Part shown: positions 1,490-46,079 of the stretch, in pieces
Position numbering within the stretch: position 1 is the stretch's first letter
How the letters are laid out: every line of letters starts with the position of its first letter
From: Candidatus Woesearchaeota archaeon
GTDB lineage: Archaea > Nanobdellota > Nanobdellia > Woesearchaeales > GCA-2686295
Direction: 5' to 3'
DNA: 64,000 nucleotides
Assembly: GCA_013202845.1 (NCBI GenBank)
Contig: JABMPT010000010.1
Coordinates: 59,876-123,875 of the forward strand
Translations under genes and position numbers: made by a program
The notes under the pieces: model-generated
The model's database searches: none
What the model saw: the letters and a program-made list of their open reading frames with translations, nothing else
What the model was told of the DNA's origin: nothing

Positions 1490-1681
1490 TTATGCTTTCT
1501 TACCTTCCTTAACCCTGTGGTACTCGTTCGTCCACCTGGTTGTTCTTGATTTTCTTCCTAGTTTGAGCATGTTTTTTTCGCACTTGCTCGAGCAGAAATC
1601 AAGTATTTTACCGTCTTTCTTAACATACTTCTTTCCTGTTCCTGCTGGAATTGATTTTTTGCAAAAATTGCATCTGACCAT
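1490..1681 (-). CDS. rpl24e: Ribosomal protein L24e
   Basis: CNFCKKSIPAGTGKKYVKKDGKILDFCSSKC zinc-ribbon pattern followed by RKSRTTRWT. Confidence 0.9.
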   Translation of the reverse strand: MVRCNFCKKSIPAGTGKKYVKKDGKILDFCSSKCEKNMLKLGRKSRTTRWTNEYHRVKEGKKA

Positions 1682-1682
1682 T

Positions 1683-1943
1683 TTATTTCCCTCTTCCTTG
1701 CCTGTTCAAAGGCCTTGCTTCGATCTCAGTTTCTCTTAGCATCAGAATATCATCTTTTTGTACAGGTCCTTTGACATTTCTTGTGATGGTTTTGTTCTTA
1801 TCTCTTCCGTCTAGGATCTTGCATCTAACCTGGATAGCTTCTCCTCTTGTTCCTGTTCTGCCGACAATCTCGTCGATACGGGCTGGAACTGCTTGAGAGA
1901 AGTTCACTTGACCTTTTGTTTCTTGTTCAGCCATTTTTGTCAC
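1683..1943 (-). CDS. rps28e: Ribosomal protein S28e
   Basis: PARIDEIVGRTGTRGEAIQVRCKILDGRDKNKTITRNVKGPV matches the S28e OB-fold signature. Confidence 0.9.
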   Translation of the reverse strand: MTKMAEQETKGQVNFSQAVPARIDEIVGRTGTRGEAIQVRCKILDGRDKNKTITRNVKGPVQKDDILMLRETEIEARPLNRQGRGK

Positions 1944-1944
1944 C

Positions 1945-2253
1945 TTATATTTGTTTCAGGACGTCTTTTGCTTCTCCTGCTTTTAGTATTGCTATGGCTG
2001 CTGTTCCAACTGGTAATCCTGCTGCTGCGCCTAGTTGCTCTTTGCTGTCAACCTCAACGTATTTGATTTCTTTCTCCTTGCATAGCAATGGCAAGTGCAT
2101 GATTATTTCTGGTGGTTGAACATCTTTTGCAACTATGACTAGTTTTGGTGTTCCTCTTTCGATTTCTTTGGTCACTTCATTACATCCTTTTCTTATTTTT
2201 CCAGTCTTTCTTGCTAATTCGACTGCTTCATATATTTTTTCCGACATTTTCAA
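1945..2253 (-). CDS. rpl7ae: Ribosomal protein L7Ae (K-turn binding)
   Basis: ARKTGKIRKGCNEVTKEIERGTPKLVIVAKDVQPPEIIMHLPLLCKEKEIKYVEV is the L7Ae/L30e family signature. It is first in the conserved L7Ae-S28e-L24e-ndk cluster. Confidence 0.9.
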   Translation of the reverse strand: MKMSEKIYEAVELARKTGKIRKGCNEVTKEIERGTPKLVIVAKDVQPPEIIMHLPLLCKEKEIKYVEVDSKEQLGAAAGLPVGTAAIAILKAGEAKDVLKQI

Positions 2254-2388
2254 AAACCTCCAAGTAAATCCTTATTGTGAGACACTTAGAATAAGTACCT
2301 CATTCAACTCGTTTTCGAGTTTCATTAATCACTGGTGTTTTGGTGGAAAAATGTACTGTTTATAAAGTTTTTTCTTCAAAAAAAGAAA

Positions 2389-2402
2389 AGCTTTAAATAT
2401 TA
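2389..2402 (+). promoter_or_regulatory. Putative archaeal TATA/BRE element upstream of the PBP-like gene
   Basis: aagctttaaatatt, about 40 nt upstream of the ATG at 2439. Confidence 0.3.
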
Positions 2403-2438
2403 ATGTAACTACCTAGTAGTAAAAGAGATGATCTAGGG

Positions 2439-5252
2439 ATGGGTCTTTCTAAAAAAGTTAGGGAATATTGGAATAATCACACAGTTAGAGAAATAGAAGA
2501 AGACACGCTAGAATACGCCAGGAACATCCCTAAAAAAGTAAAAAATGTTCTAAAAGACCCATTATTGAAAGAAACTGCAAAAAGCATGCTACACACTGCA
2601 AAAATATGGACTACAGGCATAGCAGCAGTGTTAGTAACTTTCTTCGGAGCCAATTCCCAAATGCATTTCATAGAGAAAGGCATAGCAAAAGCGCTCGAAC
2701 GTTATGACAAACAAGGAATATTCTATGAAACAGGCTATCTATGGCAAAAGATAGACTTCCAGAAGAATCTAGAGGAATTAATATCGACAGGAGAGATAAA
2801 GGAAGAACAACCTATGCAAGTAACATCTACTCCACGACCATTTGATGATGTTGGAGATTTCTTTAAGTTTTGGAATAATGAATATAGAGATTACAGGAAT
2901 CTAGCATCAATAGTGTATCACACTGTAAAAGACAATCTTACAATAGCACATCATCTTGAAGGAGTGTTTCCAAGCATCCAGGCTCTCGACGAATTTCCAA
3001 AAAATGATAGTGAAAACATAGTCTTCAACGATAGAAAAGGAAGACAATTAGCCATGATAAGGTCAAATCACAAATATTACACTTTAGATGAGATATCTAA
3101 CACCCTTGAAACAGCTCTGATAATACAGGAAGACGAAAGGTTCAGAAAGCACGCAGGATTTGACTTTATGTCTGCAGTTAGAGCATATTTTGTAAACAAA
3201 AAAGCAGGAAGAATAGTCGAAGGAGCAAGCACCCTTACAATGCAGATAGCAAAGCACCTCTTTGTAAGAAACGGAGCGAATTACGACAAAACCTATGAAA
3301 GAAAAATAAAAGAAATTATGCTAGCTATGCAGATAGATTATACACATTCAAAAGATTTTCAACTTGAATTCTATATGAATAATATATGCGAATTCGGCAA
3401 TGGAGTTGTTGGATTTGGAGACGCATCACTTTTCTATTTCAATAAAAGAGTTGCAGATATTTCTCTTGCAGAAGCAACTTTCTTAGCAGTCATACCAAAT
3501 AATCCGGCAATGCACCCATACAGAGCAGATGGACTTAAACTGATAATGCAAAACCAGGCAAGACTTCTAGAAGAAATGGTTGATGAAAAAGAGATAACTC
3601 AAGAGCAGGCAGACCAGGTAAAAGCAACAGTATTCAATTTCAGCAAACCAAACTCAAGAATAAAAACCCCTTTCCCATACGTAATAGACTTTGTAAACTC
3701 ATATTTCCAATTAGCTTTGGAAGACCTTGGACTTCCGGCTGATGAATTTGACCTAACAAATCCAAATGGATTGTTCAGAATGACAGGAACAGCAGAATTT
3801 AACACAACTCTAGATAGAAACCTCATGTGGATATTGAATAATGCTGTGTTTGAAAGGAGATTTCACTGGAGTCAGGATTATGCATTCATGATAACTAATG
3901 CCAATTCAGGAGAAATAAGAGCGATCTGTTCAAGCGATGAAATAGGGCAGAACGCGAATATGCTGAAAAACTATGATTATCCAACAGGATCATCCCTTCT
4001 AAAACCACTTACTTATGCTCTTGCATTACAAAGTGGAGAGATGGATGTAGGTTCAAGATTTGATGACACAAAAGTAGCTCCAATCATTGAGGTTGATGGA
4101 ATACAGAAAGCATCATTCACAATAACAGACACATCCAGCTGGAATATTAGCAATTACAATAAAAAATTCCATGGAGAGCAATTATGGACAGATCTAGTTA
4201 AGACATCAAATAATATCGTGCCTGCAAAACTAGTCCTTGAGATGAATAATGGACAGATGACAGGTGCAGAAATGCTCAAATGGTACCTCGGACTGCTCGG
4301 GACAGACCTATCCCGGTACACCAAATCAGGTGACGAAATCTACTCGAGCGTCTTGGGAACCATTGAACAAACAGTTTTTGAAGCCAACAGCGGTTTCAGG
4401 GTGTTTCACGACGGAAAACTAATTCGTAATGCAGAAGATGAACCTTCATTGATACTGAGAAACTTCACATTACAAGATCATAAATTTGAAGTTGAAGATA
4501 ATATAGACTATGAGGGAGTATTGGCAGACAATGTTTTACCATACATCCAAGCAGCTCTATGGAAATCACTGAATGGTTCTGTAGGTGGTCTGTCAAGATA
4601 TTATGCTTATGGAAAAACAGGAACATCAGAATTTGAAAGATTCGAGAACACTCATGGCAGACTGACAAACGCGACATGGTACAATCTTGTCATTAAATCA
4701 AAATACTATGGTGACTTGGTATTCACAGGAGTTGCAACAACCCATAAAAAAACAGGATACATTGCTGCAAAAGTTCATGGACCTATTGTAAAGAACCTTG
4801 TCAAGAAACTTGGAAAAACTGATTCCAAAGGCCATTTCCGCAACCTTAACAACATAATTGCAGCTTCAACCAAAGAACCTGAAACAGAAGAAGTCTCAAA
4901 GTTTGTAATATCAGATATGTCAGTGCTTATCAATAATTATGTGGCAATGAACGGACCTATGATAAACAAAAGCGGAGAAAGCCATTTCATAAAAGGAGAC
5001 AAAATTTATATTAAAGATAATGCCTATGAAGTGTTAGCAGACCTTTCAACAAGACTTAATGCCAAAAGCAGAAAAAAATACTTGAAAGCATTGAACCAAT
5101 TAAGAAAAGGAGTGTATACAAGAAATATTCCATTAGTGATTGACATAAATGATATCATTGGAACAATGGAAAGCGCAAAGAGACAAGAGCACACCTATAT
5201 TAATTCTTTAGAGATAGGCACAGTTATAAGTCATTTGAGAAAAGAGTTCTAG
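2439..5252 (+). CDS. Class A penicillin-binding protein-like: GT51 peptidoglycan glycosyltransferase plus transpeptidase, N-terminal membrane anchor
   Basis: GT51 motifs QEDERFRKHAGFDF (EDxxFxxHxGxD), GASTLTMQIAKH (GxSTxTQQ), RKIKEIMLAMQID and EFYMNNICEFGNGVVGFGDASLFYFNK. Transpeptidase motifs GSSLLKPLTY (SxxK) and YGKTGTSE (KTG[T/S]). One TM helix near residues 55-75. Confidence 0.75.
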   Translation: MGLSKKVREYWNNHTVREIEEDTLEYARNIPKKVKNVLKDPLLKETAKSMLHTAKIWTTGIAAVLVTFFGANSQMHFIEKGIAKALERYDKQGIFYETGYLWQKIDFQKNLEELISTGEIKEEQPMQVTSTPRPFDDVGDFFKFWNNEYRDYRNLASIVYHTVKDNLTIAHHLEGVFPSIQALDEFPKNDSENIVFNDRKGRQLAMIRSNHKYYTLDEISNTLETALIIQEDERFRKHAGFDFMSAVRAYFVNKKAGRIVEGASTLTMQIAKHLFVRNGANYDKTYERKIKEIMLAMQIDYTHSKDFQLEFYMNNICEFGNGVVGFGDASLFYFNKRVADISLAEATFLAVIPNNPAMHPYRADGLKLIMQNQARLLEEMVDEKEITQEQADQVKATVFNFSKPNSRIKTPFPYVIDFVNSYFQLALEDLGLPADEFDLTNPNGLFRMTGTAEFNTTLDRNLMWILNNAVFERRFHWSQDYAFMITNANSGEIRAICSSDEIGQNANMLKNYDYPTGSSLLKPLTYALALQSGEMDVGSRFDDTKVAPIIEVDGIQKASFTITDTSSWNISNYNKKFHGEQLWTDLVKTSNNIVPAKLVLEMNNGQMTGAEMLKWYLGLLGTDLSRYTKSGDEIYSSVLGTIEQTVFEANSGFRVFHDGKLIRNAEDEPSLILRNFTLQDHKFEVEDNIDYEGVLADNVLPYIQAALWKSLNGSVGGLSRYYAYGKTGTSEFERFENTHGRLTNATWYNLVIKSKYYGDLVFTGVATTHKKTGYIAAKVHGPIVKNLVKKLGKTDSKGHFRNLNNIIAASTKEPETEEVSKFVISDMSVLINNYVAMNGPMINKSGESHFIKGDKIYIKDNAYEVLADLSTRLNAKSRKKYLKALNQLRKGVYTRNIPLVIDINDIIGTMESAKRQEHTYINSLEIGTVISHLRKEF

Positions 5253-5254
5253 CT

Positions 5255-5950
5255 CTACTCTCTATTAGCCCAGTCTACAGCAGCATCAACATCAGAAGTA
5301 GTTAGATCAAGCCATGGTTTTCTTGTCTGGAAAATCTTTGCACCCTTGGAATCCCATAGTAGCAAACCAGAATAAACCTTGCTAGGCTCAATTATGATCT
5401 CTGGAGGAGTAAAGTACGAAGTGTAGAGATTCTCTTTCACCATTCGCTTGTTCAAATCATCAAGGTTTATCTTTCCAAGCAATGCTTTTCTGGCTAGCAA
5501 GTTAATGACTCCCAGGACCTCTTCCTGACCGTCATATTTGACACAGAAGTTCAGGAAAAGGTTATCATAATCCTTTGTATCTTCCATCAGCTTCTTGAAA
5601 GCATCTGTTAATTTCATATCAAGATCAAACCATTTGCCGATAACGAAAACCCTGACCTTGTTTTTCTGGATATCCTCATTATTGATAAGCTCTTTGAACA
5701 GCTTTGTCAATTCAACAATCTCTTCATCAGATTCAGCAGAGATATTGAGTGTGAGTATGGGAAGAGCGTGTTTAATCTGATAATTAACAAAGGTTCTTAT
5801 CTGCTCAATATGCTTGTTCACAGCCTCTTTCTCCTCCTTTTTGTTCTTCTCAGCCCACCCCACAATAGAGCTGCCATTAATAGCTATGTGTAAAGGCTTC
5901 TTTTTCTCCTTTAGAAAATTCAAATCAATCTTTGGGAGTTTTAATTCCAT
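5255..5950 (-). CDS. cis-Prenyltransferase (UPPS) family homolog with degenerate catalytic residues; possible non-catalytic subunit
   Basis: UPPS-fold landmarks: HIAINGSSIVGWAEK in place of H(V/I)AIIMDGNGRWAK, and a C-terminal LLLWDSKGAKIF...VDWANRE. The catalytic Asp/Arg of the DGNxRW motif and the RTGGE region are replaced. Confidence 0.5.
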   Translation of the reverse strand: MELKLPKIDLNFLKEKKKPLHIAINGSSIVGWAEKNKKEEKEAVNKHIEQIRTFVNYQIKHALPILTLNISAESDEEIVELTKLFKELINNEDIQKNKVRVFVIGKWFDLDMKLTDAFKKLMEDTKDYDNLFLNFCVKYDGQEEVLGVINLLARKALLGKINLDDLNKRMVKENLYTSYFTPPEIIIEPSKVYSGLLLWDSKGAKIFQTRKPWLDLTTSDVDAAVDWANRE

Positions 5951-6024
5951 GGTCTAAAGGTTTTTTAGCTCGTTTTTAAATTTTTGTATAAAGGTTTATA
6001 AGAAAACTTTTATTCCTAGACAAA

Positions 6025-6615
6025 ATGGGAAAACACTATCAAGTATTGATGGAAAAAGTAAACAATGGTTTTTTCAAAGATGATGTTATGACTAACGGTA
6101 TGAATTTTCATGAATATCTATGTGATCTTGTGAATAGAGCTCAACTCGTTGAGATACCTTTTATCTCTGCAGATTTACCTGTGCATTTGGGATTGACCAA
6201 AAAAGAATTCTTTTCTCTTGGAAACGATTTTTTAGAATTGAGTAAAAAAAATAATACTGGTATTTTAACACCATACAAAACAACTGCGATAGAAGATCCA
6301 CAATCTGTTGTTATCATGGATGAAAGAGATGTTAATAGATTCTTTATGACAACTTCTCAGTATTTAGATTTTGGAAGAGAGTCTGAGGATATGCTTGCAA
6401 TTTCATGTGGTCAGATTAGTGTAGTAGGATGCACTCATACAGGTATCCTGATGACAGCAAAGCCCTTCTATATACATTTAGATATAGATGGAAAAAAACA
6501 AGAATTAAATCTTAGATTAAGGGCAGTCTCTGTTCAAAACATGAGCGAGTCTGGTATAACTTTTATTGAACAAGCAACTTATTTGAACTCATACTCTAAA
6601 AAAGAAAAAAATTAA
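6025..6615 (+). CDS. Hypothetical protein
   Basis: Clean 196-aa ORF with a TATA-like AT-rich upstream region. No recognisable motif. Confidence 0.4.
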   Translation: MGKHYQVLMEKVNNGFFKDDVMTNGMNFHEYLCDLVNRAQLVEIPFISADLPVHLGLTKKEFFSLGNDFLELSKKNNTGILTPYKTTAIEDPQSVVIMDERDVNRFFMTTSQYLDFGRESEDMLAISCGQISVVGCTHTGILMTAKPFYIHLDIDGKKQELNLRLRAVSVQNMSESGITFIEQATYLNSYSKKEKN

Positions 6616-6690: not shown

Positions 6691-7548
6691 ATGATTCCGG
6701 TCAACTATGCCTTTGCCTTCTTTGGATTGCTTTTCGCTTCTATATTTGACATCAAAACAAGAGAGATACCTGACTGGCTGAACTATTCATTGATTGGCTT
6801 TGGTTTCGGAACTTCGATAATCCTTTCAATAACAAACCTGAATTACTGGATATTTGTATATTCACTGCTAGGTTTTCTGGCTGGACTGATAATATCATTA
6901 GTTTTCTACTATACAGGGCAGTGGGGTGGAGGAGATGCAAAGATGATGATGGCTTTGGGAGCATTGATAGGACTGGACTTTCATTCTGGCTTCCCGATAT
7001 TTGTTGTGTTGTTGCTCAACATCTTCATAATAGGAGCAATTTATGGCGCTATATGGAGTGTTTTTTTAGCTTTGAAGCACAGAAAACAGTTCAAGAAGAG
7101 CTTTAAAGAAATAATTAGGGAGAAAAACATCTTAATTATAAGAAAGACTATTTTAATTATAGTGGTCTTATTGTTGTTATTCTTATTCATAACTCCCACA
7201 TCTATGAAGCCATTCATAATTGGAATAGCAGCGTTCATATTCTTTGCATTCTACTTCTATATATACAGCAAAGCAGTGGAGAAGTCAGCGATGGAAAAAT
7301 ACATCCCTTTGGAGAAGCTCACAGAAGGAGACTGGGTCCTGGAAACAATATATATCAATGGAAAAAAGATATACAGTCCAAGCAATGAGGGAATAGATAA
7401 GAAAGAGATAAAGAAATTATTAGAGCTGAAGAAACATCACAAGAAGTCAAAGATAAAGATCAAAGAAGGAATTCCGTTCCTGCCAAGCTTCTTCATAGCG
7501 TTTATTGTTACTTTATTATTGGGTAATTGGGTTTTATGGGTGATTTAA
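6691..7548 (+). CDS. A24-family aspartic prepilin/preflagellin peptidase (FlaK/PibD-like)
   Basis: Polytopic membrane protein. Conserved Asp motifs FDIKTREIPD and GGGDAKMM (the GGGDxK of A24 peptidases). Confidence 0.75.
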   Translation: MIPVNYAFAFFGLLFASIFDIKTREIPDWLNYSLIGFGFGTSIILSITNLNYWIFVYSLLGFLAGLIISLVFYYTGQWGGGDAKMMMALGALIGLDFHSGFPIFVVLLLNIFIIGAIYGAIWSVFLALKHRKQFKKSFKEIIREKNILIIRKTILIIVVLLLLFLFITPTSMKPFIIGIAAFIFFAFYFYIYSKAVEKSAMEKYIPLEKLTEGDWVLETIYINGKKIYSPSNEGIDKKEIKKLLELKKHHKKSKIKIKEGIPFLPSFFIAFIVTLLLGNWVLWVI

Positions 7549-7550
7549 TA

Positions 7551-8135
7551 ATGAATAAGATAGCAGTAGATATTGTGTTATTACCATCAGAAGAGATGAT
7601 GGACAAAGCAATAGAGATAAATAAAAAATTATTAAAGAATAACGAACCTAAGATTGTGTTAAATAAAGAAAATTGTCTTCCACACATGTCTCTTTGTATG
7701 GGTGTTATCGACGAGAAAGATGTTGAGCTAGTTGGAAAAGAATTAACAACGATAAGCAAAAGATTCTCTGCTTTTGATTTGTCTTTTAATGAGCTTTTTA
7801 CTTCTGATCTTGGTTTTACAGAACTATCATCTAATAAGCCTGATGATCTTCAATTACTCCATGAAACTATTACTGTTAAACTTGCAAAATTCATGACTTA
7901 TAATGCAACTAGCGACATGCTTTTGTTATCAGATGGAGAGGAGAGTTTTTCTGCTGGTTGGATTAGTGGTTATCATAATAATGCTAGTTTTGAAAATTTT
8001 AGTCCTCATGTGACTGTTGGATATGGTGTTCCAGTCGTTGATCTCCCAATCAATTTTACTGCTTCAAAACTTGCTATTTGTCATATAGGAAATTATTGCA
8101 CTTGTAGAAAACTCTTGTTTGAAAAAACTCTATAA
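7551..8135 (+). CDS. 2H phosphoesterase superfamily protein (LigT/ThpR-like), paralog 1
   Basis: Two H-x-[ST]-x motifs, PHMSLCMG and PHVTVGYG. N-terminal IAVDIVLLPSEE. The ORF track starts at a TTG inside the upstream gene; the ATG at 7551 directly follows the upstream stop. Confidence 0.7.
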   Translation: MNKIAVDIVLLPSEEMMDKAIEINKKLLKNNEPKIVLNKENCLPHMSLCMGVIDEKDVELVGKELTTISKRFSAFDLSFNELFTSDLGFTELSSNKPDDLQLLHETITVKLAKFMTYNATSDMLLLSDGEESFSAGWISGYHNNASFENFSPHVTVGYGVPVVDLPINFTASKLAICHIGNYCTCRKLLFEKTL

Positions 8136-8163: not shown

Positions 8164-8766
8164 ATGGAAAAAATTGCTATTGATATCGCATTATTATTGC
8201 CTGAAGAAATTAATAATATTTGTATTAATATTAATAGAAGTAAAGGAGTTGAAGCTTTTTCCGACTTAAGTAAACATGATAATCACCCTCATATAACTCT
8301 TGCAATGGGAGTAATCGATGAAAACCAGATTGATATTGTTAATAACAAATTAGAAGAAATTACTAAGGATTTTTCAGGTTTTGATTTAGAAATAATTGAT
8401 ATTTTCAATGAAACCACTCCTGAAAATAAAACTTCAACAAGCTTTGTTATCAAACCAAATGCTGAACTAAAAGAATTACATGAAAAAATAATGAATGAAT
8501 TATTACCAATCTTCACTTATAATGTTTCAAAAGAAATGTTTTTCATTGATTCAGATGAAGATTATAAAGAAGTTTCTGAGTATTGGGTTGAAAACTATGG
8601 TACAAATCATAAATATCCTGAAAAGTACAGACCACATATTAGTTTAAAATGTAGACATGGAAAATATAATTCTTTTCCTGTTAAATTCTTCACAAATAAA
8701 CTGGTTATGTGTCAACTTGGTAATTATTGCACTTGTAGAAAAATTCTTTTCGAAGTAAATCTCTAA
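8164..8766 (+). CDS. 2H phosphoesterase superfamily protein, paralog 2 (tandem duplicate)
   Basis: HPHITLAMG and RPHISLKCR H-x-T/S-x motifs. Shares N-terminal IAIDIALLLPEE and C-terminal GNYCTCRKILFE with paralog 1. Confidence 0.7.
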   Translation: MEKIAIDIALLLPEEINNICININRSKGVEAFSDLSKHDNHPHITLAMGVIDENQIDIVNNKLEEITKDFSGFDLEIIDIFNETTPENKTSTSFVIKPNAELKELHEKIMNELLPIFTYNVSKEMFFIDSDEDYKEVSEYWVENYGTNHKYPEKYRPHISLKCRHGKYNSFPVKFFTNKLVMCQLGNYCTCRKILFEVNL

Positions 8767-24097: not shown

Positions 24098-26053
24098 TCA
24101 TTTTATAGGCATCAAGGTATAAAATATGTTTCCTCCTTCAGGGTTCGCTCTGACATTAACTTCACAGTCAAGTGCTTCACCTATTTCCCTTGCGTTAGAG
24201 AGACCGATTCCTCTTCCTTTTGAATTCTTCTCAAGATAAACTCCTGCTTCCCAAATTGCTTGATAATCTTCTTCACTTAAGGTTTTTCCAGCGTCTATCA
24301 CTTCAAGAGCTAGATGGTTCTCATCTTTTTGATAAAGCTTTACAATAACATCACTATCTTTTGGAGCGTATTTGTCTGCGTTTGTCAGGTTATTCCTCAA
24401 CACCTGCTTGATAATCGGATGAGAGAATACATTTGGTAAATCTTCTTGGATATCAAGTTTAAGATGCACATTCTCCAGAGTTTTATCATATGCATTAACT
24501 GTGTTTGACACAAGTGAACCCATATCCATCTCTTCTGTTTTAATCCTCTCGCCTCTCTCCATTTGTGAAAAAACAGTGAAGTATCCTAACACATCAAAGA
24601 GTTCTTCAGAGCTCGATTTGGCTGCTTCTAGTAAATCTAAATCAACACCAGTCTCTAAAAAGTAGTCAAGAATACCATGTATATTACTCGCAGGGTTCCT
24701 AATATCATGGAGAACTGTACCTATGAACAAATCCTTGGTCTTATTAGCTCTTTTCAAAGCTTCTTCAACTTTCTTGTATTGAATAGACTCTGCTATCTCA
24801 TTAGATACAAACTCTAATAGTTCTAGATCTTTTTCAGAATAAATCTTCTTGTCTGAATAGTTCTGCAGAGCTAAAACTCCTATGACTTCCTCGTCAATTA
24901 TTAAAGGCACACCAAGCCATTGCTTAGATGGAGCGCCTATTAACTCTATTTCCTTTTTTTCTTCAAGTTTATTCATATCATTGTCTGAAAGAAACATTGA
25001 TTTTTTGTTTTTTATCACATGGGCTGTGAGCCCATTGCCTAAAGGTATGGCTTCTTCTGGCCCTTTATCTTTTTCATCTTTGTAAAAAGGGAATGATAAC
25101 TCATCTCTTTCTTTATCATAAAAAGCTATATAGAAATTATCAGTATTTACAACCTTGCTTAAGCTGATATCTATTGTTCCAATAAGCTCATCAAGACTTG
25201 TTGTTCTATGAGTTGCTTCAGATATATTGTACAATGCTTTTTGCAGTTGTTCTGCTTTCTCTCTCTCTGTGATGTCTTTGACAAAGCTTATTTTCATACC
25301 ATGAAACAAATTAGTAGTTGCAAATGATAGTGTTCGTTGCTCTCCATCCTTGTGTGTTATCACAGTTTCGTTTTCTTCTGCAAATAATTCTTGATATTCT
25401 TTATCAGGAGAGATTTTCTCTAAGAAAGTTTGGAGGTCTAGTATATCGTCACTTGGGTAACCTGTGATTTTTTCCAATTTAGGGTTATAAATCAAAACTT
25501 TTCCATCTTTGCCAGAAACCAGGATTCCATAAGGTGCAGAGTCAATAGAGAGGCTGTATTTTTCTTCACTTTGTTTTAACTTATGTTGGGCTTTTATTTG
25601 TTCTGTTATATCTCTGATAATTCCTTGATAAATTAGATTTCCTTTCTCATCCTCTGATATAGTAGAAGTTAGTAAACAATCAACTATTGTACCATCTTTT
25701 TTCTTTAACTGTACTTCCATACCCTTTACATGACCTTTCTTTTTTATTTCTTCAATAAACCTTTCTCTATCTTCAAGATTAACATATAACTCAGAAACAC
25801 TTGTTTTCAAAAGATCTTCTCTTTCATAACCAAATAAGTCTAAAGCAGCTTGATTAAAATCTATTATCTTACCCTCTCTGCTAGAAATATATAGAGCATC
25901 CGTTGAGCTTTCGAAAAGGTCACGGTACTTTTCTTCGCTTAATAGGTTACTTATAAGTTGTATTTCTTCAGGTTTAAGCTTACCAATTGTTTCATTACTC
26001 AGAATTCCTTCTAATTTTTCTCTAGTCATTTTTTCAAGTTTATCTCCTGTCAT
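24098..26053 (-). CDS. Cytoplasmic multi-PAS/GAF sensor histidine kinase
   Basis: PAS-like blocks. H-box GTVLHDIRNPASNIHG. HATPase_c G-boxes GRGIGLSNAREI. Confidence 0.8.
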   Translation of the reverse strand: MTGDKLEKMTREKLEGILSNETIGKLKPEEIQLISNLLSEEKYRDLFESSTDALYISSREGKIIDFNQAALDLFGYEREDLLKTSVSELYVNLEDRERFIEEIKKKGHVKGMEVQLKKKDGTIVDCLLTSTISEDEKGNLIYQGIIRDITEQIKAQHKLKQSEEKYSLSIDSAPYGILVSGKDGKVLIYNPKLEKITGYPSDDILDLQTFLEKISPDKEYQELFAEENETVITHKDGEQRTLSFATTNLFHGMKISFVKDITEREKAEQLQKALYNISEATHRTTSLDELIGTIDISLSKVVNTDNFYIAFYDKERDELSFPFYKDEKDKGPEEAIPLGNGLTAHVIKNKKSMFLSDNDMNKLEEKKEIELIGAPSKQWLGVPLIIDEEVIGVLALQNYSDKKIYSEKDLELLEFVSNEIAESIQYKKVEEALKRANKTKDLFIGTVLHDIRNPASNIHGILDYFLETGVDLDLLEAAKSSSEELFDVLGYFTVFSQMERGERIKTEEMDMGSLVSNTVNAYDKTLENVHLKLDIQEDLPNVFSHPIIKQVLRNNLTNADKYAPKDSDVIVKLYQKDENHLALEVIDAGKTLSEEDYQAIWEAGVYLEKNSKGRGIGLSNAREIGEALDCEVNVRANPEGGNIFYTLMPIK

Positions 26054-34532: not shown

Positions 34533-34648
34533 TGGGCCGGACGAGATTCGAACTCGCGACCACTTGATTGCTTTCACCTACTGAAAGTTCCAAAACTTCC
34601 AGTTTTGGTTAAAAGTCAAGTGCTCTTGCCAGGCTGAGCTACCGGCCC
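34533..34648 (-). tRNA. tRNA-Lys (anticodon TTT) with a roughly 40-nt canonical intron
   Basis: Acceptor GGGCCGG/CCGGCCC. D arm GCTC-AGCCTGGCAA-GAGC. Anticodon stem CTTGA/TCAAG with loop CTTTTAA. T arm GCGAG-TTCGAAT-CTCGT. Confidence 0.7.
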
Positions 34649-36217: not shown

Positions 36218-36583
36218 ATGAAGAGAGTTCTTATAATTGAGGATGAGGAAGACATCGCAGAGGCAGAGAAACTGATTCTACAGGACCACTTCAAGGTTTA
36301 TGTCGCATATACTGGCAGTGAGGGTCTTGCAATGGCTGAGAAGCTTAGACCTGATGTTATTGTTCTTGACATAATGTTGCCGCATATATCTGGCTATGAG
36401 ATTGCTCAGAGACTCAAGGATAATAAGAATCTGGCCAATTCAAGGATTGTCATGGTGACTGCAAAAAGCGAACAGGCTGATGAAGATATGGGCAAATACA
36501 GCGGCGCTGAAGTCTATGTCACCAAGCCATTTGAGCCTGAAGAACTTCTCGAAGCAGTGAATAAAGTTCTGAAAAAGAGGTGA
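36218..36583 (+). CDS. CheY-like response regulator, single receiver domain
   Basis: KRVLIIEDEEDIAE. Phospho-acceptor region VIVLDIMLP. TAKSE with the conserved Lys. Confidence 0.85.
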   Translation: MKRVLIIEDEEDIAEAEKLILQDHFKVYVAYTGSEGLAMAEKLRPDVIVLDIMLPHISGYEIAQRLKDNKNLANSRIVMVTAKSEQADEDMGKYSGAEVYVTKPFEPEELLEAVNKVLKKR

Positions 36584-36604: not shown

Positions 36605-38074
36605 ATGAATGCATTTGAATTATTAATTATAATCTATCATTCTATAAACAGTTTCATGGCCACTGATGGCGGTGAATTGCTTAAGAAATTCGTTGAGCTC
36701 TTCTTGTTCACAGTTGTAACCTATATGATTGCCAGTGAGTACGGCCGCTCCAAAGAAAGGCACCTAAAGTATTTGATGATTGGGTTTGCAGCTCTAGCAA
36801 TTGACAAATTGATCATGAGCTTGGTTTTTTCTTCTATTGTTTTTGGAGATGTAAGATTGTTTATCCTGAATCCTTTTCTGCCTATTCTAGACTTGTTTTT
36901 AGAGATATTTGCTTTAATATTATTGACTAATTCATTCATTTACCCTATCTTTGCAGACAAGGTTGATGCTTTGAAAAGAAAGATTACCAGAGAGACATTT
37001 ATAGTTATTATAATAGTATTAATTATTGAAGCTTTCTGGCTTGTCAGGGTTACTCATGAGCCTACAGCTGCTTTCAGGAGTGAATTGAGTTATCTGTTCT
37101 TGGAATTATTGAAGATAATGGTTCTTTACAGCCCTATATTCTATATATTATCTAATTTGAAAAAGATGGGCAAGTACGGACCTCACATAATGATTGCTTT
37201 TATAGTAGCTATGATAACACCTGCAACCAATGTCATTAATGTTGTCTTCTTTGGAGGAGCAAGCAACAACTTAAGAGTATTTGCTCATCCATTCCTGTTC
37301 ATCAGTGTATTGTTGTTCACAAGAGTTACTTATCTAAAACTTGTTGATAAGGCAACCATCAAACGTGAGTTGGCTGAGACCAAAGAGAAATATGTCCGTG
37401 AGCATGAATTAGGAAAGATGAAGGATGAATTCGTCAGCACAGTAAGCCATGAATTAAGGACTCCTATAACCTCTATGAAACTTTATTTGGCTTTGCTAAG
37501 GCAAAAAAAATTCGGCGCTTTGAAAAAGAAACAGCAAGATGCTGTTAGTATTGTTGAAAAGGAAACTAATAGATTATCAAAATTAATTGCAGATATATTG
37601 AACCTTTCAAGATTGGAAGCAAAGAAAACAAAGCTGAAGTTGGAGAATGTCAACATCTACAAACTTGTGAAAAACAATCTCTATTATAACCTGGCTGAGC
37701 AGAAAGGAGTTGAGATTGAGAATAATATTTCTAAGAAATTCATTGCAACTGTCGATCCTGAAAAATTCAAACAAGTCTTTATCAATTTGTTTAGTAATGC
37801 AGTGAATTATGCAAGGAGAAAGATTAGTATTTCTGTTAAAGAAGGTGTGAATCACTGGGATTTTATCGTCGAGGATGATGGACCAGGCATTGAAAAAGAA
37901 AAACTTGAAAAATTATTTGATAAATTCTATAGAGTAGGGGATTATCTGACAAAAGATAAGAAAGGAACAGGTCTAGGTCTAGCTATAGTGAAAAATATTG
38001 TAGAACTTCACAACGGCGAAGTCTGGGCAGAATCTAAAAAAGGGACGAGGTTTATTGTCAGATTGCCAAAGTAA
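36605..38074 (+). CDS. Membrane sensor histidine kinase
   Basis: Six or seven N-terminal TM helices. H-box VSTVSHELRTPITSM. N/G boxes NAVNYA, DDGPGI, GTGLGLAIV. Confidence 0.85.
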   Translation: MNAFELLIIIYHSINSFMATDGGELLKKFVELFLFTVVTYMIASEYGRSKERHLKYLMIGFAALAIDKLIMSLVFSSIVFGDVRLFILNPFLPILDLFLEIFALILLTNSFIYPIFADKVDALKRKITRETFIVIIIVLIIEAFWLVRVTHEPTAAFRSELSYLFLELLKIMVLYSPIFYILSNLKKMGKYGPHIMIAFIVAMITPATNVINVVFFGGASNNLRVFAHPFLFISVLLFTRVTYLKLVDKATIKRELAETKEKYVREHELGKMKDEFVSTVSHELRTPITSMKLYLALLRQKKFGALKKKQQDAVSIVEKETNRLSKLIADILNLSRLEAKKTKLKLENVNIYKLVKNNLYYNLAEQKGVEIENNISKKFIATVDPEKFKQVFINLFSNAVNYARRKISISVKEGVNHWDFIVEDDGPGIEKEKLEKLFDKFYRVGDYLTKDKKGTGLGLAIVKNIVELHNGEVWAESKKGTRFIVRLPK

Positions 38075-43764: not shown

Positions 43765-45045
43765 GTGACTAACATGGAAGGGAACCGAGTCGTTATTACA
43801 GGAATGGGTTGTGTTACACCCATAGGAATTGGGATAGATCAATATAAAACCGCACTTGAAATGGGTGTTTCTGGAGCAGGACCTTTGACAAACGTGGAAG
43901 ACACAGAAGGTCTTAATGTTCTTATAGCATGTGAAGTAGATGGTTTTGATCCAAATGATTATATGAGTTTTAAAACTGCAAAGAGGACTGATCTTAGCAC
44001 TCAATTTAGTCTGGCTGCAATGAAAGAAGCAATAACAGATGCAGGACTGTCTCTTACAGAGGATGGTAATCTAGCTCTTGATGATAATAATCAAAGGGTT
44101 TCAATAATTATGGGCACTGGAATTGGTGGTTTTAAAACAACTCAGGAGCAAACAAGAATTCTGCTTAATAAAGGTCCAAGAAGGGTCAATCCCCTTGCCA
44201 TTCCTAAGCTAATGCCAAACGCAGTAGCCGCTTTGGGTTCTTTAGAATTTTTAATTCATGGAAACGCAAAAACTGTCAATAGTGCGTGCAGTTCAGCAAA
44301 TGATGCTATTGCAGATGCCTATGATAAACTTGTATTGGGAAGAGCTGATGTTACTATCTCCGGAGGATCAGACGCAGGCATATCAAAACTTACTATCGCA
44401 GCATTTGCTAATATGGGTGCACTTACTAAACAATACAATGACAATCCTACAATCGCATCAAGACCTTTTGATATGGATAGAAGCGGATTCGTCATAGGTG
44501 AAGGTTCAGGAGTTGTTGTCATGGAAAGACTTGAGTATGCGCAAGCTAGAGGTGCAAGGATTTACGCAGAGGTCTTGGGTTATGGAGCAACAAGCGATGC
44601 ATTTCATCTTACTGCACCTTCCAAAGATGGGTCTGGAGCTATAAGCGCAATGCAAATGGCGCTGGATATGGCAGGTTTAAGACCTGAACAAGTTGACTAC
44701 ATAAACGCTCATGGAACTTCTACTCCTTTAAATGACAAAATGGAAACAATAGCCATAAGAAAGGTTTTTGGAGCATATGCTGATAATCTCTTTGTGAGCT
44801 CAACCAAATCCATGGTTGGCCACTTGCTTGGAGCAGCTGGCGGAGCTGAACTAATAGCGACTGTTTTAGGTATGCAGCACGATACTGTTTATCCAACCAT
44901 TAATTATACTACACCAGATCCTGAATGTGACTTAAATTATGTGCCAAACAAAGCATTGAATCAAGTGACAAATGTCGCATTATCGAATTCTTTTGGCTTT
45001 GGCGGACATAATGTATGCCTTGCTGTTAAGAAATATGAAGGATGA
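43765..45045 (+). CDS. fabF: 3-oxoacyl-ACP synthase II-like beta-ketoacyl synthase
   Basis: NRVVITGMGCVTPIG N-terminus. Active-site Cys region NSACSSANDAIADA. Catalytic His AHGTSTPLND and GHLLGAAG. Confidence 0.85.
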   Translation: MTNMEGNRVVITGMGCVTPIGIGIDQYKTALEMGVSGAGPLTNVEDTEGLNVLIACEVDGFDPNDYMSFKTAKRTDLSTQFSLAAMKEAITDAGLSLTEDGNLALDDNNQRVSIIMGTGIGGFKTTQEQTRILLNKGPRRVNPLAIPKLMPNAVAALGSLEFLIHGNAKTVNSACSSANDAIADAYDKLVLGRADVTISGGSDAGISKLTIAAFANMGALTKQYNDNPTIASRPFDMDRSGFVIGEGSGVVVMERLEYAQARGARIYAEVLGYGATSDAFHLTAPSKDGSGAISAMQMALDMAGLRPEQVDYINAHGTSTPLNDKMETIAIRKVFGAYADNLFVSSTKSMVGHLLGAAGGAELIATVLGMQHDTVYPTINYTTPDPECDLNYVPNKALNQVTNVALSNSFGFGGHNVCLAVKKYEG

Positions 45046-45047
45046 AT

Positions 45048-46079
45048 TTATCTAGAAAACCTTGCCCTGTATAAGTTAGCTCCATAAGTGAACCCTGCTC
45101 CGAATGCAACATTAACAACAAGACTTCCTTCTTTAATTATCCCTCTTTCTTTTGCTTCTGCTGCAGCTAATGGCACTGATGCTGTAGAAGTGTTGCCGTA
45201 CCTTTCAAGATTGTGAAACACAACTCCTTTTAATCCTTCTTTTTCAAGTCCTTTCTTAGCAGCGTTCACAATTCTTATGTTAGCGCCATGCGGAAGCACT
45301 ACATCAACGTCTTCTAATGAATAACCAGTGCCTTCTAAAACATCCAAGACAGATTGCTTCATCACTCTTGCGGCAAATTTGAGAACTTTTCCTCCATCCA
45401 TAATTAGATAGTTCTTTTTTCTTTTCTCTGTCTGAAACTCTCCATTGTTTTTTGAAACTATTTGAAGCCCTTCTCTTTTCTCCGTGGTTAGATAACCATT
45501 TGGCCAGCCTTTACCTCCCATATCAGGCTCAGAACCCAAAACATTTTTTATCACTCCTTCCTCTTCAGATCTTTGGAGAAGATAAGCACCTGCACCGTCA
45601 CCGAACAATACACATGTATGTCTGTCTGCATAATCTGTGAATTTTGAAATTCTTTCAGCTCCAAGAACTAATAATTTATCAACAACACCCGCTATGATGT
45701 TATTGTATCCTGTTCTTATGGCACCTACCAAGCCAGTGCATGCTAGGATCTGGTCGTACGCAGGAATTCCTTTCCTTGCGCCTATGTCTCCAGCAATAAG
45801 CGCTGCATGAGCCGGGAATGTTCTATTTCCATCATGCACGTTTGTAGCAAGTATTATTTCATCAATTTCTTCTGGACTAAAAGGCACACGACTCATCAAA
45901 TCATACACTGCAAGGGTTCCCATCTCTCTAACTCCTTTGTCTAAAGAAATCCTTCTCTCTCTCATGCCAGTCCTGGAAAATATCCACTCATCACTTGTAT
46001 CTACAAGCTTTTCAAGGTCTGCATTTGTTAGAACAGTTTCAGGAATGTGAACTCCTGGTCCGTATATAGTTACTCCCAT
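45048..46079 (-). CDS. fabH: 3-oxoacyl-ACP synthase III-like (KAS III/FabH family) condensing enzyme
   Basis: Cys-His-Asn triad contexts ILACTGLVGA, LPHGANIRIV, YGNTSTASVPLA. Confidence 0.75.
   Translation of the reverse strand: MGVTIYGPGVHIPETVLTNADLEKLVDTSDEWIFSRTGMRERRISLDKGVREMGTLAVYDLMSRVPFSPEEIDEIILATNVHDGNRTFPAHAALIAGDIGARKGIPAYDQILACTGLVGAIRTGYNNIIAGVVDKLLVLGAERISKFTDYADRHTCVLFGDGAGAYLLQRSEEEGVIKNVLGSEPDMGGKGWPNGYLTTEKREGLQIVSKNNGEFQTEKRKKNYLIMDGGKVLKFAARVMKQSVLDVLEGTGYSLEDVDVVLPHGANIRIVNAAKKGLEKEGLKGVVFHNLERYGNTSTASVPLAAAEAKERGIIKEGSLVVNVAFGAGFTYGANLYRARFSR

Follow-up and report, generated by a model that had tools for sequence, protein, structure and literature searches.

The ORF at positions 2439-5252 encodes a homologue of class-A penicillin-binding proteins (PBPs) and belongs to a small, fast-diverging family of such homologues resident in DPANN archaea. 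The host lineage is a subclade of Woesearchaeales. Class-A PBPs are otherwise bacterial, and we know of no archaeon that makes a bacterial-type cell wall, so the presence of an intact bacterial wall-building enzyme in an archaeon is a puzzle. The original prediction, a class-A PBP lying beside a degenerate UPPS homologue in an archaeal context, was upheld in the window (the whole stretch of 64,000 nucleotides that was analyzed), since the GT51 E-value, the transpeptidase (TP) motifs, the fold and the flanking genes agree. The coordinates of both ORFs (Table 1) were confirmed to be exact; the two genes are convergent and are separated by 2 bp.

Table 1. Features of the PBP-like gene and its surroundings (window positions; aa, residues of the PBP-like protein unless stated otherwise).
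Feature	Position	Strand	Remarks
L7Ae (1945-2253), S28e (1683-1943), L24e (1490-1681)	1490..2253	-	conserved archaeal ribosomal-protein cluster; fixed flank of slot
Candidate archaeal BRE/TATA element of PBP-like gene	2392..2401	+	TTTAAATA-containing stretch ~40 nt before ATG; AT-rich region
Class-A PBP-like ORF P0001	2439..5252	+	937 aa; NCBI name [quoted passage not shown]
Lys-rich N-terminal tail, aa 1-52	2439..2594	+	presumed cytoplasmic; AF2 helices, low confidence
Weakly hydrophobic segment, aa 53-75	2595..2663	+	presumed signal-anchor or TM helix; hydropathy (KD19)
Juxtamembrane region, aa 76-199	2664..3035	+	family motif D90..G93.F95...G99.L101-W102; lineage-specific insertion; low pLDDT
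GT51 peptidoglycan glycosyltransferase domain, aa 200-395	3036..3623	+	Pfam; PDB 2oqo alignment
Catalytic Glu231 of GT51	3129-3131	+	alignment
Glu292 of GT51	3312-3314	+	alignment
Interdomain linker, aa 396-480	3624..3878	+	alignment, AF2 model
Transpeptidase (penicillin-binding) domain, aa 481-795	3879..4823	+	alignment, AF2 model, structure superposition
TP motif G517-S-S519-L-L-K522-P	3987-4007	+	alignment
TP motif S590-N-N592	4206-4214	+	alignment
TP motif K726-T-G-T	4614-4625	+	alignment
C-terminal helical extension, aa 796-937	4824..5249	+	low pLDDT
UPPS-fold protein P0121, 231 aa	5255..5950	-	fixed flank of variable slot; Woesearchaeales-wide family
Peptidase A24 (prepilin/preflagellin peptidase)	6691..7548	+	Pfam; near-constant neighbour of UPPS-like gene in Woesearchaeales loci

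Domain architecture and catalytic motifs

The Pfam Transgly profile (PF00912) matched residues 204-380 with an E-value of 2.4e-45, and the A. aeolicus PBP1a GT domain (PDB 2oqo) matched with an E-value of 2e-31. All five GT51 motifs had been reported; motifs 1 to 4 were found (E231-D-E-R-F-R-K-H-A-G, G262-A-S-T-L-T-M-Q, R288-K-I-K-E292 and K305..Y312-x-N314), but motif 5 (RRxxVL) is degenerate, Q373 and L377 alone being retained. The SxxK and KTG(T) motifs claimed for the TP domain were located by alignment as S519xxK522 and K726TG, together with S590xN592. The Pfam TP profile (PF00905) gave no match at E<=0.01, and the protein fell under all NCBIfam PBP thresholds; PBP_1a_fam, whose cut-off is 508.75, scored 225 bits over residues 212-733. 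In the AF2 model, where pLDDT is above 90 for most positions between residues 200 and 790, the bifunctional PBP fold was confirmed by superposition on S. aureus PBP2, E. coli PBP1b, L. monocytogenes PBP4 and A. baumannii PBP1a.

The N-terminus, MGLSKK, matches MGLSEK in the orthologue P0339. The proposed N-terminal membrane anchor is represented by a hydrophobic segment, but only a weakly hydrophobic one: its KD19 maximum is 1.35 (residues 53-71), while the other four core orthologues reach 1.20-1.76 and the bacterial relative P0197 reaches 2.77. The C-terminal extension (aa 796-937), for which a Pfam search returned no match, is common only to the four closest archaeal orthologues, at 20-28% identity, and is missing from P0193 and P0194.

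With bacterial class-A PBPs (S. aureus PBP2, 2olv/3dwk; E. coli PBP1b, 3vma/5hlb; A. aeolicus PBP1a GT domain, 2oqo) the archaeal protein has in common the order of (presumed) N-terminal anchor, GT51, linker and TP, both GT51 catalytic glutamates, the SxxK, SxN and KTG motifs, and a predicted fold that superposes on their structures. It differs from them in its archaeal host, the ~120-aa juxtamembrane region, the 140-aa C-terminal helical extension, the weak anchor, a GSSxxKP loop that is one residue longer than the canonical loop, the degenerate motif 5, and its failure to reach the Pfam TP threshold or any NCBIfam PBP threshold. Identity is just 19-20% to S. aureus PBP2 in structural alignments and 22-26% to bacterial homologues in sequence alignments.

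The seven archaeal members are 25-40% identical overall, and of the 644 ungapped columns in their alignment just 52 show no variation (92% vary). The GT51 and TP active-site residues are all invariant, the set including E231, D232, H238, K289, E292, S519, K522, S590, N592, K726 and G728, and both catalytic centres look intact as judged from the alignment. The PBP-like protein evolves far faster than every neighbour: compared with locus L006, its identity is 37%, versus 77-89% for ADK, NDK, L24e, S28e, L7Ae, the UPPS-like protein and PepA24.

Residence in the archaeal genome and origin

The flanks had been described as unmistakably archaeal, and we identified L7Ae, S28e, L24e, NDK, EF-2, EF-1a, split RpoB, TFIIB, LonB, peptidase A24 and an intron-containing tRNA in the context of the gene. 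That class-A PBPs are otherwise bacterial, and that a first word-index search returned no relative above 32% identity, could point to an assembly chimera or to bacterial contamination of an archaeal bin. We consider this explanation next to impossible, because contigs from two other sequencing runs (SRR28106079, 69 kb, and SRR28106066) carry the identical PBP-like protein, flanks and junctions, and syntenic orthologues (28-40% identity) occupy the same archaeal site in three other Woesearchaeales species, in independently derived NCBI and ENA assemblies. These orthologues lie between the UPPS-like gene and L7Ae, with 37% identity over the full length at L006/L007/L010, 30% at L008/L009/L011 and 28% at L012. 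Moreover, the base composition fits the window as predicted, the GC/GC3 of the gene (0.366/0.313) being inside the range of its neighbours, and no repeats or mobile-element signatures were detected at its borders. A chimeric contig was ruled out by the synteny and the recurring junctions, and the view of a resident gene acquired by horizontal transfer, not contamination, was sustained. The candidate BRE/TATA stretch falls in a 185-bp divergent intergenic region common to the PBP-like gene and L7Ae, and the evidence for it is weak, this region being AT-rich. Promoter-like matches were near shuffle expectation, and no bacterial-type terminator was found.

An exhaustive HMMER search of 1.84e9 representatives yielded only seven archaeal cluster representatives of the family, and P0182, P0191/P0339, P0192, P0193, P0194 and P0195/P0340 ranked above the bacterial continuum. 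The P0193 gene sits among archaeal genes, including those for RpoL, a Ski2-type helicase and Fe-ADH_2. In a distance-based neighbour-joining (NJ) tree of 132 sequences and 611 columns, sampled from the best 150 HMMER matches, the seven archaeal proteins and six Fibrobacterota/Chitinivibrionia-type PBPs formed a 13-member clade in 60/60 bootstraps, within which the bacterial six were recovered in 60/60 and the core five in 53/60. This phylogeny suggests one bacterial acquisition, that is, a single bacterium-to-archaeon transfer; the assignment of the donor to Fibrobacterota/Chitinivibrionia-type bacteria is provisional. In an NJ tree of the flanking genes the PBP-containing genomes also group together, in keeping with one insertion and vertical inheritance thereafter.

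The bacterial sister group in the NJ tree consists of long PBP1-like proteins (P0197, P0198, P0200, P0234, P0246 and P0277), of which P0197 is named Chitinivibrionia and P0246 Fibrobacterota. They are ~27% identical to the archaeal protein and have in common with the archaeal members a pre-GT FPS/YPS segment, linker motifs, a (D/N)(G/N)K(L/I)I.N....PSL segment and the G-S-(S/A)-x-x-K-P loop. In contrast to the archaeal members, they have a bacterial gene context (AsmA, PgpA and RecR around P0197), a strongly hydrophobic TM segment (KD 2.77) and large insertions in the TP domain, and they lack the archaeal C-terminal domain. The loop is found in 11 of the 13 clade members, while among 135 other matches checked the canonical GSxxKP was present in 99 and GSxxxKP alone in only 2. 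In three bacterial clade members K-3 is Ala and K-4 is Ser, and the spacing of the Ser in the SxxK loop across the wider clade is ambiguous.

The UPPS-like neighbour and the variable slot

The neighbouring protein was predicted to have a UPPS fold without the catalytic Asp and Arg, and the evidence agrees. It matched Pfam Prenyltransf with an E-value of 1e-23, although under all NCBIfam cut-offs, and its predicted model (pLDDT 86) has the UPPS fold, with TM-scores of 0.76-0.81, about 0.8 to bacterial UPPS. Its HIAINGSSIVGWAE aligns with HIAIIMDGNGRWAK of M. luteus UPPS, the equivalents of D26, N28 and R30 being S, I and G, and the FSTENWSR and RTSGEERLSN motifs are replaced too. The suggested resemblance to the non-catalytic subunits of heteromeric cis-prenyltransferases (NgBR/Nus1/MaUPPS-B) did not hold. 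Like NgBR, the protein lacks the region I catalytic Asp/Arg; however, the C-terminal RxG, the defining mark of NgBR-type subunits and a requirement in both subunit classes (bioRxiv 10.1101/139675), is absent from it and occurs in just 1 of 81 family members. Its sequence and fold matches go instead to catalytic UPPS and DHDDS, and the family has conserved motifs of its own, SG(L/F)LLWD, NYDGQEE and KENLYTSYFxPP.

The UPPS-like gene has 201 relatives in GTDB genomes and is fixed between peptidase A24 and a slot of variable content, which is bounded on the other side, in the PBP lineage, by the L7Ae-S28e-L24e-ndk cluster. Of 80 loci kept from a GTDB scan with the UPPS-like family, only three (L010, L011 and L012) had a PBP-like gene within 8 kb. 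Elsewhere the slot is empty (L013, L015, L037 and others) or holds an Asp/Glu racemase (L014), a PrsA/SurA-like PPIase, a metallophosphatase or other genes, so that in the loci recovered the presence of the PBP-like gene is already largely uncorrelated with the UPPS-like gene. The neighbour is best read as an unrelated, lineage-wide pseudo-cis-prenyltransferase, its adjacency being incidental.

These data bear on the reading that the PBP polymerizes a non-murein, polyprenyl-PP-linked envelope glycan, with the UPPS-like neighbour supplying or handling the carrier lipid; handling of that lipid by the neighbour was the alternative offered earlier. The two genes adjoin in four species, the UPPS fold is kept with high confidence, and some DPANN carry Alg13/14- or EpsE/F-like lipid-linked glycan enzymes (PMC8993221). 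We nevertheless find this proposal very improbable and do not regard the neighbour as a functional partner: the slot content varies freely, the convergent genes form no operon and are not co-transcribed, and a family that lacks D26, N28, R30, the region III and V catalytic residues and RxG is unlikely to make any polyprenyl-PP. In addition, the kept SxxK, SxN and KTG point to a D-Ala-D-Ala-type acyl donor, that is, a murein-type peptide.

Possible functions of the PBP-like protein

The reading that we favour, though with only middling confidence, is that the protein is an active enzyme of the cell surface whose substrate is bacterial-type peptidoglycan material. It would be anchored N-terminally, facing outward and catalytically competent; its GT51 cleft would bind lipid-II-type disaccharide-peptide or glycan strands, and D-Ala-D-Ala stem peptides would acylate Ser519. 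The gene is accessory, being absent from sister species with the same flanks (71-74% identical), it is fast-evolving, and no mur, mraY, murG, flippase or SEDS gene was found in the window plus 7.5 kb upstream (~71 kb); the substrate is therefore most likely peptidoglycan material encountered at the cell surface, for example that of a host or of prey, or wall or precursors that are scavenged, and an essential archaeal sacculus is less likely. Several observations speak against the surface reading. GT51 enzymes act on lipid II in their own anchoring membrane, and the surface reading leaves unexplained how a membrane-bound archaeal enzyme would gain access to the lipid II or nascent glycan of a bacterium; the strict conservation of both catalytic sites would be predicted by endogenous polymer synthesis too; the anchor is weakly hydrophobic and surface exposure is presumed; and PF00905 gave no significant score, with GT51 motif 5 degenerate. 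DPANN precedents for dealing with bacterial wall material are GH23 lytic transglycosylases and a muramoyl-tetrapeptide carboxypeptidase (PMC8204110, PMC9723730, PMC11537232). The giant extracellular GH23 "murein-like lytic transglycosylase" proteins are likewise bacterial-wall-directed, were acquired by Woesearchaeota/Pacearchaeota, are presumed to be surface-exposed and have been explained as a means of interaction with bacteria (Rinke 2013, Castelle 2015/2021, Vigneron 2022); however, they are lytic and reach 3,000 aa, whereas the present protein is of the GT51-transpeptidase synthase type, with no SLT/GH23 domain detected by Pfam.

It is also conceivable, but in our judgement unlikely, that the Woesearchaeales in question produce lipid II, or a near analogue on a polyprenyl carrier, which the PBP polymerizes and cross-links to build a murein-like layer or septal ring of their own. 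The invariant catalytic centres in proteins so divergent overall, the presumed type II topology like that of bacterial class-A PBPs, other bacterial-type envelope and lipid genes of the lineage (e.g., the FabF/FabH-like KAS at 43765-46079), the bacterial isoprenoid and fatty-acid pathways reported for Woesearchaeota (PMC8204110) and the racemase that fills the same slot in L014 are consistent with such synthesis. Set against this are the lack of precursor genes in the ~71 kb, the absence of the PBP-like gene from the sister species, unlike what an essential wall synthase would show, and the extreme divergence of the PBP relative to its neighbours. Furthermore, the DPANN and archaeal cell-wall literature that we found mentions no GT51 enzyme or class-A PBP for DPANN, and a 2012 screen detected the GT28+GT51+GH gene set in 0 of 101 archaeal genomes, the single genes named for archaea being GH73 and GT28, not GT51 (PMC3541169).

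A non-enzymatic or decaying relic, in which the PBP fold serves as a binding module (adhesin or sensor) or the gene is being lost, would accord with the very fast divergence and patchy distribution, the missing PF00905 score, the degenerate motif 5, the weak anchor, and the extra N- and C-terminal regions to which no function is assigned. We regard it as quite improbable, because each of the seven distinct archaeal cluster representatives has an intact ORF and the catalytic residues of both domains are all invariant while nearly all other ungapped columns vary. The catalytic cores are also the best-kept parts of the protein: among the core five, identity is 38-49% in the GT core and 29-45% in the TP core, compared with 14-28% in the tails.

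The PBP-like ORF and its two active sites

The PBP-like ORF (its product is P0001, whose numbering is used for residues) and the convergent UPPS-like gene (product P0121) lie exactly where the original prediction had placed them, separated by a 2-bp gap. Residues 204-380 of P0001 match the Pfam GT51 model PF00912 (E=2.4e-45), and the GT51 region matched the A. aeolicus PBP1a glycosyltransferase structure with E=2e-31. All five GT51 motifs had been claimed for the protein; motifs 1 to 4 were found in the alignment, with E231 and E292 as the catalytic Glu residues of motifs 1 and 3, but motif 5 (R-R/K-x-x-V-L) is degenerate, reading Q-N-Q-A-R-L-L with the Arg substituted, and the family keeps just Q373 and L377 of it. 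G262-x-S-T, K305, Y312 and N314 are, together with E231 and E292, aligned and invariant, and alignments with 19 and with 76 bacterial class-A PBPs showed that P0001 has every universally conserved GT51 residue (E231, D232, H238, G262, T265, K289, E292, K305 and Y312). The predicted SxxK and KTG transpeptidase (TP) motifs were likewise borne out: S519-L-L-K522, S590-N-N592 and K726-T-G occur in the correct order and spacing, matching the 76 bacterial PBPs, and the SxxK, SxN and KTG residues are invariant across the seven archaeal members. The Pfam Transpeptidase model PF00905 gave no significant score on P0001, and the NCBIfam model TIGR02074 (PBP_1a_fam) covered residues 212-733 with 225 bits, under its cut-off of 508.75.

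Coordinates of the features discussed (window positions unless a locus is named)
Feature	Coordinates	Strand	Description
PBP-like ORF (P0001)	2439-5252	+	937 aa
UPPS-like gene (P0121)	5255-5950	-	231 aa
Variable slot, window equivalent	2254-5254		between UPPS-like gene and L7Ae
Tandem paralogues	7527-8135, 8164-8766	+	about 200 aa each
ORF of 960 aa	14221-17103	+	zero Pfam matches
PAS/GAF histidine kinase	24098-26053	-	bacterial-style two-component gene
tRNA	34533-34648	-	Rfam match over 116 nt, apparently intron-bearing; ARAGORN gave none there
Response regulator	36218-36583	+	bacterial-style two-component pair with HisKA kinase
HisKA kinase	36605-38074	+	bacterial-style two-component pair with response regulator
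FabF-like	43765-45045	+	bacterial-type beta-ketoacyl-ACP synthase
FabH-like	45048-46079	-	bacterial-type beta-ketoacyl-ACP synthase
Protein of 874 aa	52717-55341	+	DUF5667 and Laminin_G_3 (ConA-like lectin); probably a surface protein
ORF after P0193/P0194 genes	L090:10582-11859, L172:4307-5548		413/425 aa, no Pfam match
ORF upstream of PBP-like gene in L008	L008:11263-12297		344 aa, same strand, no Pfam match
Asp/Glu racemase in slot	L014:9636-10331		beside metallophosphatase

An AlphaFold (AF2) model of P0001, built from a 77-sequence alignment, had a mean pLDDT of 77, mostly above 90 across residues 200-790. A Foldseek search with this model returned S. aureus PBP2 first (E=6e-27), followed by E. 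coli PBP1b, L. monocytogenes PBP4 and A. baumannii PBP1a. Residues 1-175 and 810-937 were modeled as helical with low confidence, and the model is uninformative for both termini. The sole hydrophobic segment and presumed membrane anchor, aa 53-71, is weakly hydrophobic, with a maximum KD19 (19-residue window) of 1.35; the other core orthologues (the four closest archaeal ones) range from 1.20 to 1.76, and the bacterial relative P0197 reaches 2.77. A class III (prepilin-like) signal peptide, suggested by the nearby peptidase A24 gene, was considered and set aside, as the N-terminal tail of the window protein, 52 aa long, is conserved; two orthologues carry K-(K/R)-(S/G)-L-I-T ahead of the hydrophobic stretch. 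P0001 is shown to be a class-A PBP homologue, and apart from GT51 motif 5 and the curated family score it agrees with the class-A features of motif and fold that could be tested.

Of the 644 ungapped columns in the alignment of the seven archaeal PBP-like proteins, only 52 show no variation, and all catalytic residues of both domains are among these. Within the core five (P0001 and its four closest archaeal orthologues), the GT51 (38-49% identity) and TP (29-45%) domains are the most conserved parts and the tails the least (14-28%). The invariant catalytic residues and conserved cores, set against the divergent tails, indicate that catalysis is under purifying selection and that the protein changes fast elsewhere. 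These alignments show both active sites to be conserved under constraint.

Orthologues, origin and residency

A word-index search with P0001 returned nothing above 32% identity among the best 8000 candidates. The apparent orphan status was overturned by orthologues found through synteny of the UPPS-like neighbor and through an exhaustive HMMER search. The UPPS-like protein has orthologues at 72-80% identity, and their loci carry a Transgly gene at the same site, between the UPPS-like gene and L7Ae. The PBP-like protein of locus L006 (GCA_016783785.1; 846 aa) is 37% identical to that of the window over its full length, those of L008/L011 (854 aa) 30%, and that of L012 (at least 946 aa) 28%. The neighboring products of L006 are much closer to their window counterparts, with identities of 82% for ADK, 88% for NDK, 84% for L24e, 89% for S28e, 85% for L7Ae, 80% for the UPPS-like protein and 77% for peptidase A24. 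The available pairs of PBP-like orthologues are either identical (P0195 and P0340) or no more than 40% identical, too diverged for dN/dS. The word-index search thus missed every orthologue of a fast-evolving gene, and synteny recovered them.

In the HMMER search of 1.84 billion representatives, the archaeal relatives P0182, P0191/P0339, P0192, P0193, P0194 and P0195/P0340 outranked some 29,000 bacterial PBPs, which form a continuum. The archaeal relatives that carry a source name are called Nanoarchaeota, Woesearchaeota or archaeon, and the neighbors of P0193 are archaeal (RpoL, a Ski2-type helicase and an Fe-ADH_2 family protein). Next in rank were long Chitinivibrionia and Fibrobacterota proteins (P0197, P0246 and others); the gene context of P0197 is bacterial. 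A profile search with the TP and C-terminal region of four orthologues retrieved P0182 and P0001 alone, and a metagenome contig scan with the five-member alignment, dominated by the generic GGSTxTQQ pattern, retrieved no family member. The genes of P0193 and P0194, the more distant archaeal members, are followed by a conserved ORF, with ends overlapping or abutting; these ORFs are 28% identical to each other and have no counterpart in the window. In L008, an ORF unrelated to them lies directly upstream of the PBP-like gene. These ORFs may be lineage-specific partners of the PBP-like genes.

The original prediction that the gene was acquired by HGT agrees with an NJ tree of 132 sequences (611 columns, Kimura-corrected distances, sampled from the top HMMER hits), in which the seven archaeal and six Fibrobacterota-type PBPs formed one clade in 60 of 60 bootstraps. 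Within it, the six bacterial members clustered together (60/60), as did the five Woesearchaeales proteins from loci of the UPPS-like/L7Ae type (53/60); archaeal monophyly was recovered in 13 of 60 bootstraps, and the placement of P0193 and P0194 was poorly supported. Pre-GT and linker segments are alike across the 13-member clade, and the loop reads G-S-(S/A)-x-x-K-P in 11 of these sequences. Outside the clade, 135 hits were checked: the canonical GSxxKP is present in 99, GSxxxKP alone in just 2. Three bacterial clade members carry Ala at K-3, the canonical nucleophile position, with Ser at K-4 only. In the sister and wider clade, the register of the SxxK serine is ambiguous, and these sequences suggest that the transpeptidase domain of the Fibrobacterota-type subfamily either uses an unusual SxxxK register or is inactive. 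The tree and the shared segments are consistent with a single transfer, the donor being Fibrobacterota-like or a common unsampled one, a reading that is provisional because of the tree method and the sampling.

That P0001 might come from a chimeric contig or from contamination was rejected. The flanks are archaeal (L7Ae, S28e, L24e, NDK, ADK, EF-2, EF-1alpha and S10, with split RpoB, RpoH, TFIIB, LonB, peptidase A24 and an apparently intron-containing tRNA); GC and GC3 of the PBP gene are inside the range of neighboring genes; the identical protein with identical junctions occurs on contigs of SRR28106079 and SRR28106066, two further sequencing runs; and a repeat scan of positions 1900-6100 found no flanking repeats, insertion scars or mobile-element ends. 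The gene is therefore resident, as had been predicted. A promoter and terminator scan found no bacterial-type terminators, and tblastn against 50,697 phage records gave ordinary PBPs only, at no more than 29% identity, with no hint of a viral vector.

The UPPS-like neighbor and the variable slot

P0121 has a confident UPPS fold (AF2 pLDDT 86), and its model aligned with the UPPS structures of S. pneumoniae, B. subtilis, M. luteus and E. coli with TM scores of 0.76-0.81 (Foldseek). Its predicted catalytic degeneracy was confirmed in the alignment: S, I and G occupy the equivalents of D26, N28 and R30 (region I), and the substrate and Mg2+ residues of region III (F-S-x-E-N-x-x-R) and region V (R-T-x-G-E-x-R-x-S-N) are replaced. 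TIGR00055 scored 84.3 bits, under its cut-off of 109.55. Of 81 distinct family members, 8 have Asp at the position equivalent to D26 and 2 have Asn at the one equivalent to N28. A likeness to the non-catalytic subunits of heteromeric cis-prenyltransferases had also been proposed. The C-terminal RxG motif, which is contributed to the partner's active site, is essential in homomeric enzymes and in NgBR-type subunits (bioRxiv 10.1101/139675). An R.G within the last 25 aa is found in 1 of the 81 members, and P0121 itself ends in ...DWANRE. This likeness was therefore not upheld; from the loss of D26/N28/R30, of regions III and V and of RxG, P0121 is judged to belong with neither the canonical synthases nor the NgBR-type subunits. 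No catalytic partner cis-prenyltransferase was found in the window. The family is Woesearchaeales-wide (a scan of GTDB species-representative genomes confirmed 201 relatives) and may be a lineage-specific pseudo-enzyme. It has invariant motifs of its own (H21, W32, SG(L/F)LLWD, NYDGQEE and KENLYTSYFxPP), and the gene is nearly always divergent beside peptidase A24 (L010-L089 and the window).

Many Woesearchaeales loci are arranged as PepA24(-), UPPS-like(+), variable slot and L7Ae-S28e-L24e-NDK, and nearly all of them have PepA24 paired with the UPPS-like gene. An empty slot of about 130-260 bp is seen in L013, L015, L037 and several loci at greater distance. In other loci the slot contains a membrane-anchored PrsA/SurA-like PPIase (L018 and L020), TM-anchored ORFs of a similar kind and about 400 aa in L021, L025, L028, L029 and L034, a metallophosphatase with an Asp/Glu racemase in L014, a metallophosphatase with a second ORF lacking a Pfam match in L017, and multi-gene inserts in L016 and L078. 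A PBP-like gene occupies it in the window lineage and three relatives only, and the PBP-positive genomes group together in a tree of five concatenated flank genes. These data fit a putative single insertion into the slot followed by vertical descent. Because slot contents vary and the PBP-positive genomes form a clade by their flank genes, the adjacency of the PBP-like and UPPS-like genes, which are convergent, is positional and not functional, and the suggested pairing of the two is abandoned; adjacency across a few close species can be purely positional. The PBP-like gene is thus shown to be accessory as well as fast-evolving.

Possible function and other genes of the window

Murein synthesis is regarded as a bacterial hallmark. 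The GT51 family tracks the presence of peptidoglycan almost perfectly, and a 2012 CAZy-based survey covering 101 archaeal genomes found the GT28+GT51+GH gene set in none of them; as single genes it named GH73 and GT28 for archaea, but not GT51 (PMC3541169). We found no paper in the literature describing a GT51 or class-A PBP in DPANN. NCBI auto-annotation already names P0001 'penicillin-binding protein [Candidatus Woesearchaeota archaeon]', and what is unexpected is the archaeal host. DPANN archaea have a GT51 and transpeptidase family that appears to descend vertically and whose two active sites are clearly constrained. It offers a concrete protein for asking if some archaea build, borrow or manipulate bacterial walls, and it bears on the association of Woesearchaeales with bacteria.

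In the reading we prefer, the PBP-like protein would be held by an N-terminal anchor and face outward, its GT51 cleft would bind lipid-II-type or glycan-strand substrates, its TP domain would form an acyl-enzyme with D-Ala-D-Ala stems, and at the surface of the archaeon the enzyme would work on wall material of bacterial type. Taken whole, this package strikes us as an even call. Action at the surface is favored because the gene is dispensable between sister species, because it diverges like a surface-interaction protein, and because DPANN already have wall-directed enzymes, among them GH23 lytic transglycosylases and a muramoyl-tetrapeptide carboxypeptidase (PMC8204110, PMC9723730, PMC11537232). 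Whereas the murein-like GH23 lytic transglycosylases of DPANN have their SLT/GH23 domain in a very large extracellular protein, PF00912 (GT51) was the only domain detected in P0001. The weak point of the preferred reading is the route by which a membrane-bound GT51 would reach the lipid II of another cell.

The main rival, endogenous synthesis of a murein-like polymer, would use the same two conserved active sites; murein-precursor genes (MurA-F, Ddl, MraY, MurG and flippase) were absent from the 64-kb window and the 7.5 kb upstream (about 71 kb), and we consider this rival improbable. Similarly doubtful is the fuller proposal that a Woesearchaeales subclade uses a bacterial-type bifunctional PBP at its own surface, polymerizing and/or cross-linking peptidoglycan, either as a murein-like structure of its own or in covalent coupling to, or remodeling of, the wall of a bacterial partner. 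If either proved true, Archaea would have their first murein-synthase-type activity, and the enzyme would be a new tool of DPANN-bacterium interaction, a synthase-type counterpart of the known lytic transglycosylases.

Several other genes of the window are listed in the table. The tandem paralogues have a common tail (...GNYCTCRK(L/I)LFE...), and one of them has a weak 2'-5' RNA ligase/2H-phosphoesterase match. The FabF-like and FabH-like genes, situated on an archaeal contig, are in line with the bacterial fatty-acid genes that others have reported from Woesearchaeota.
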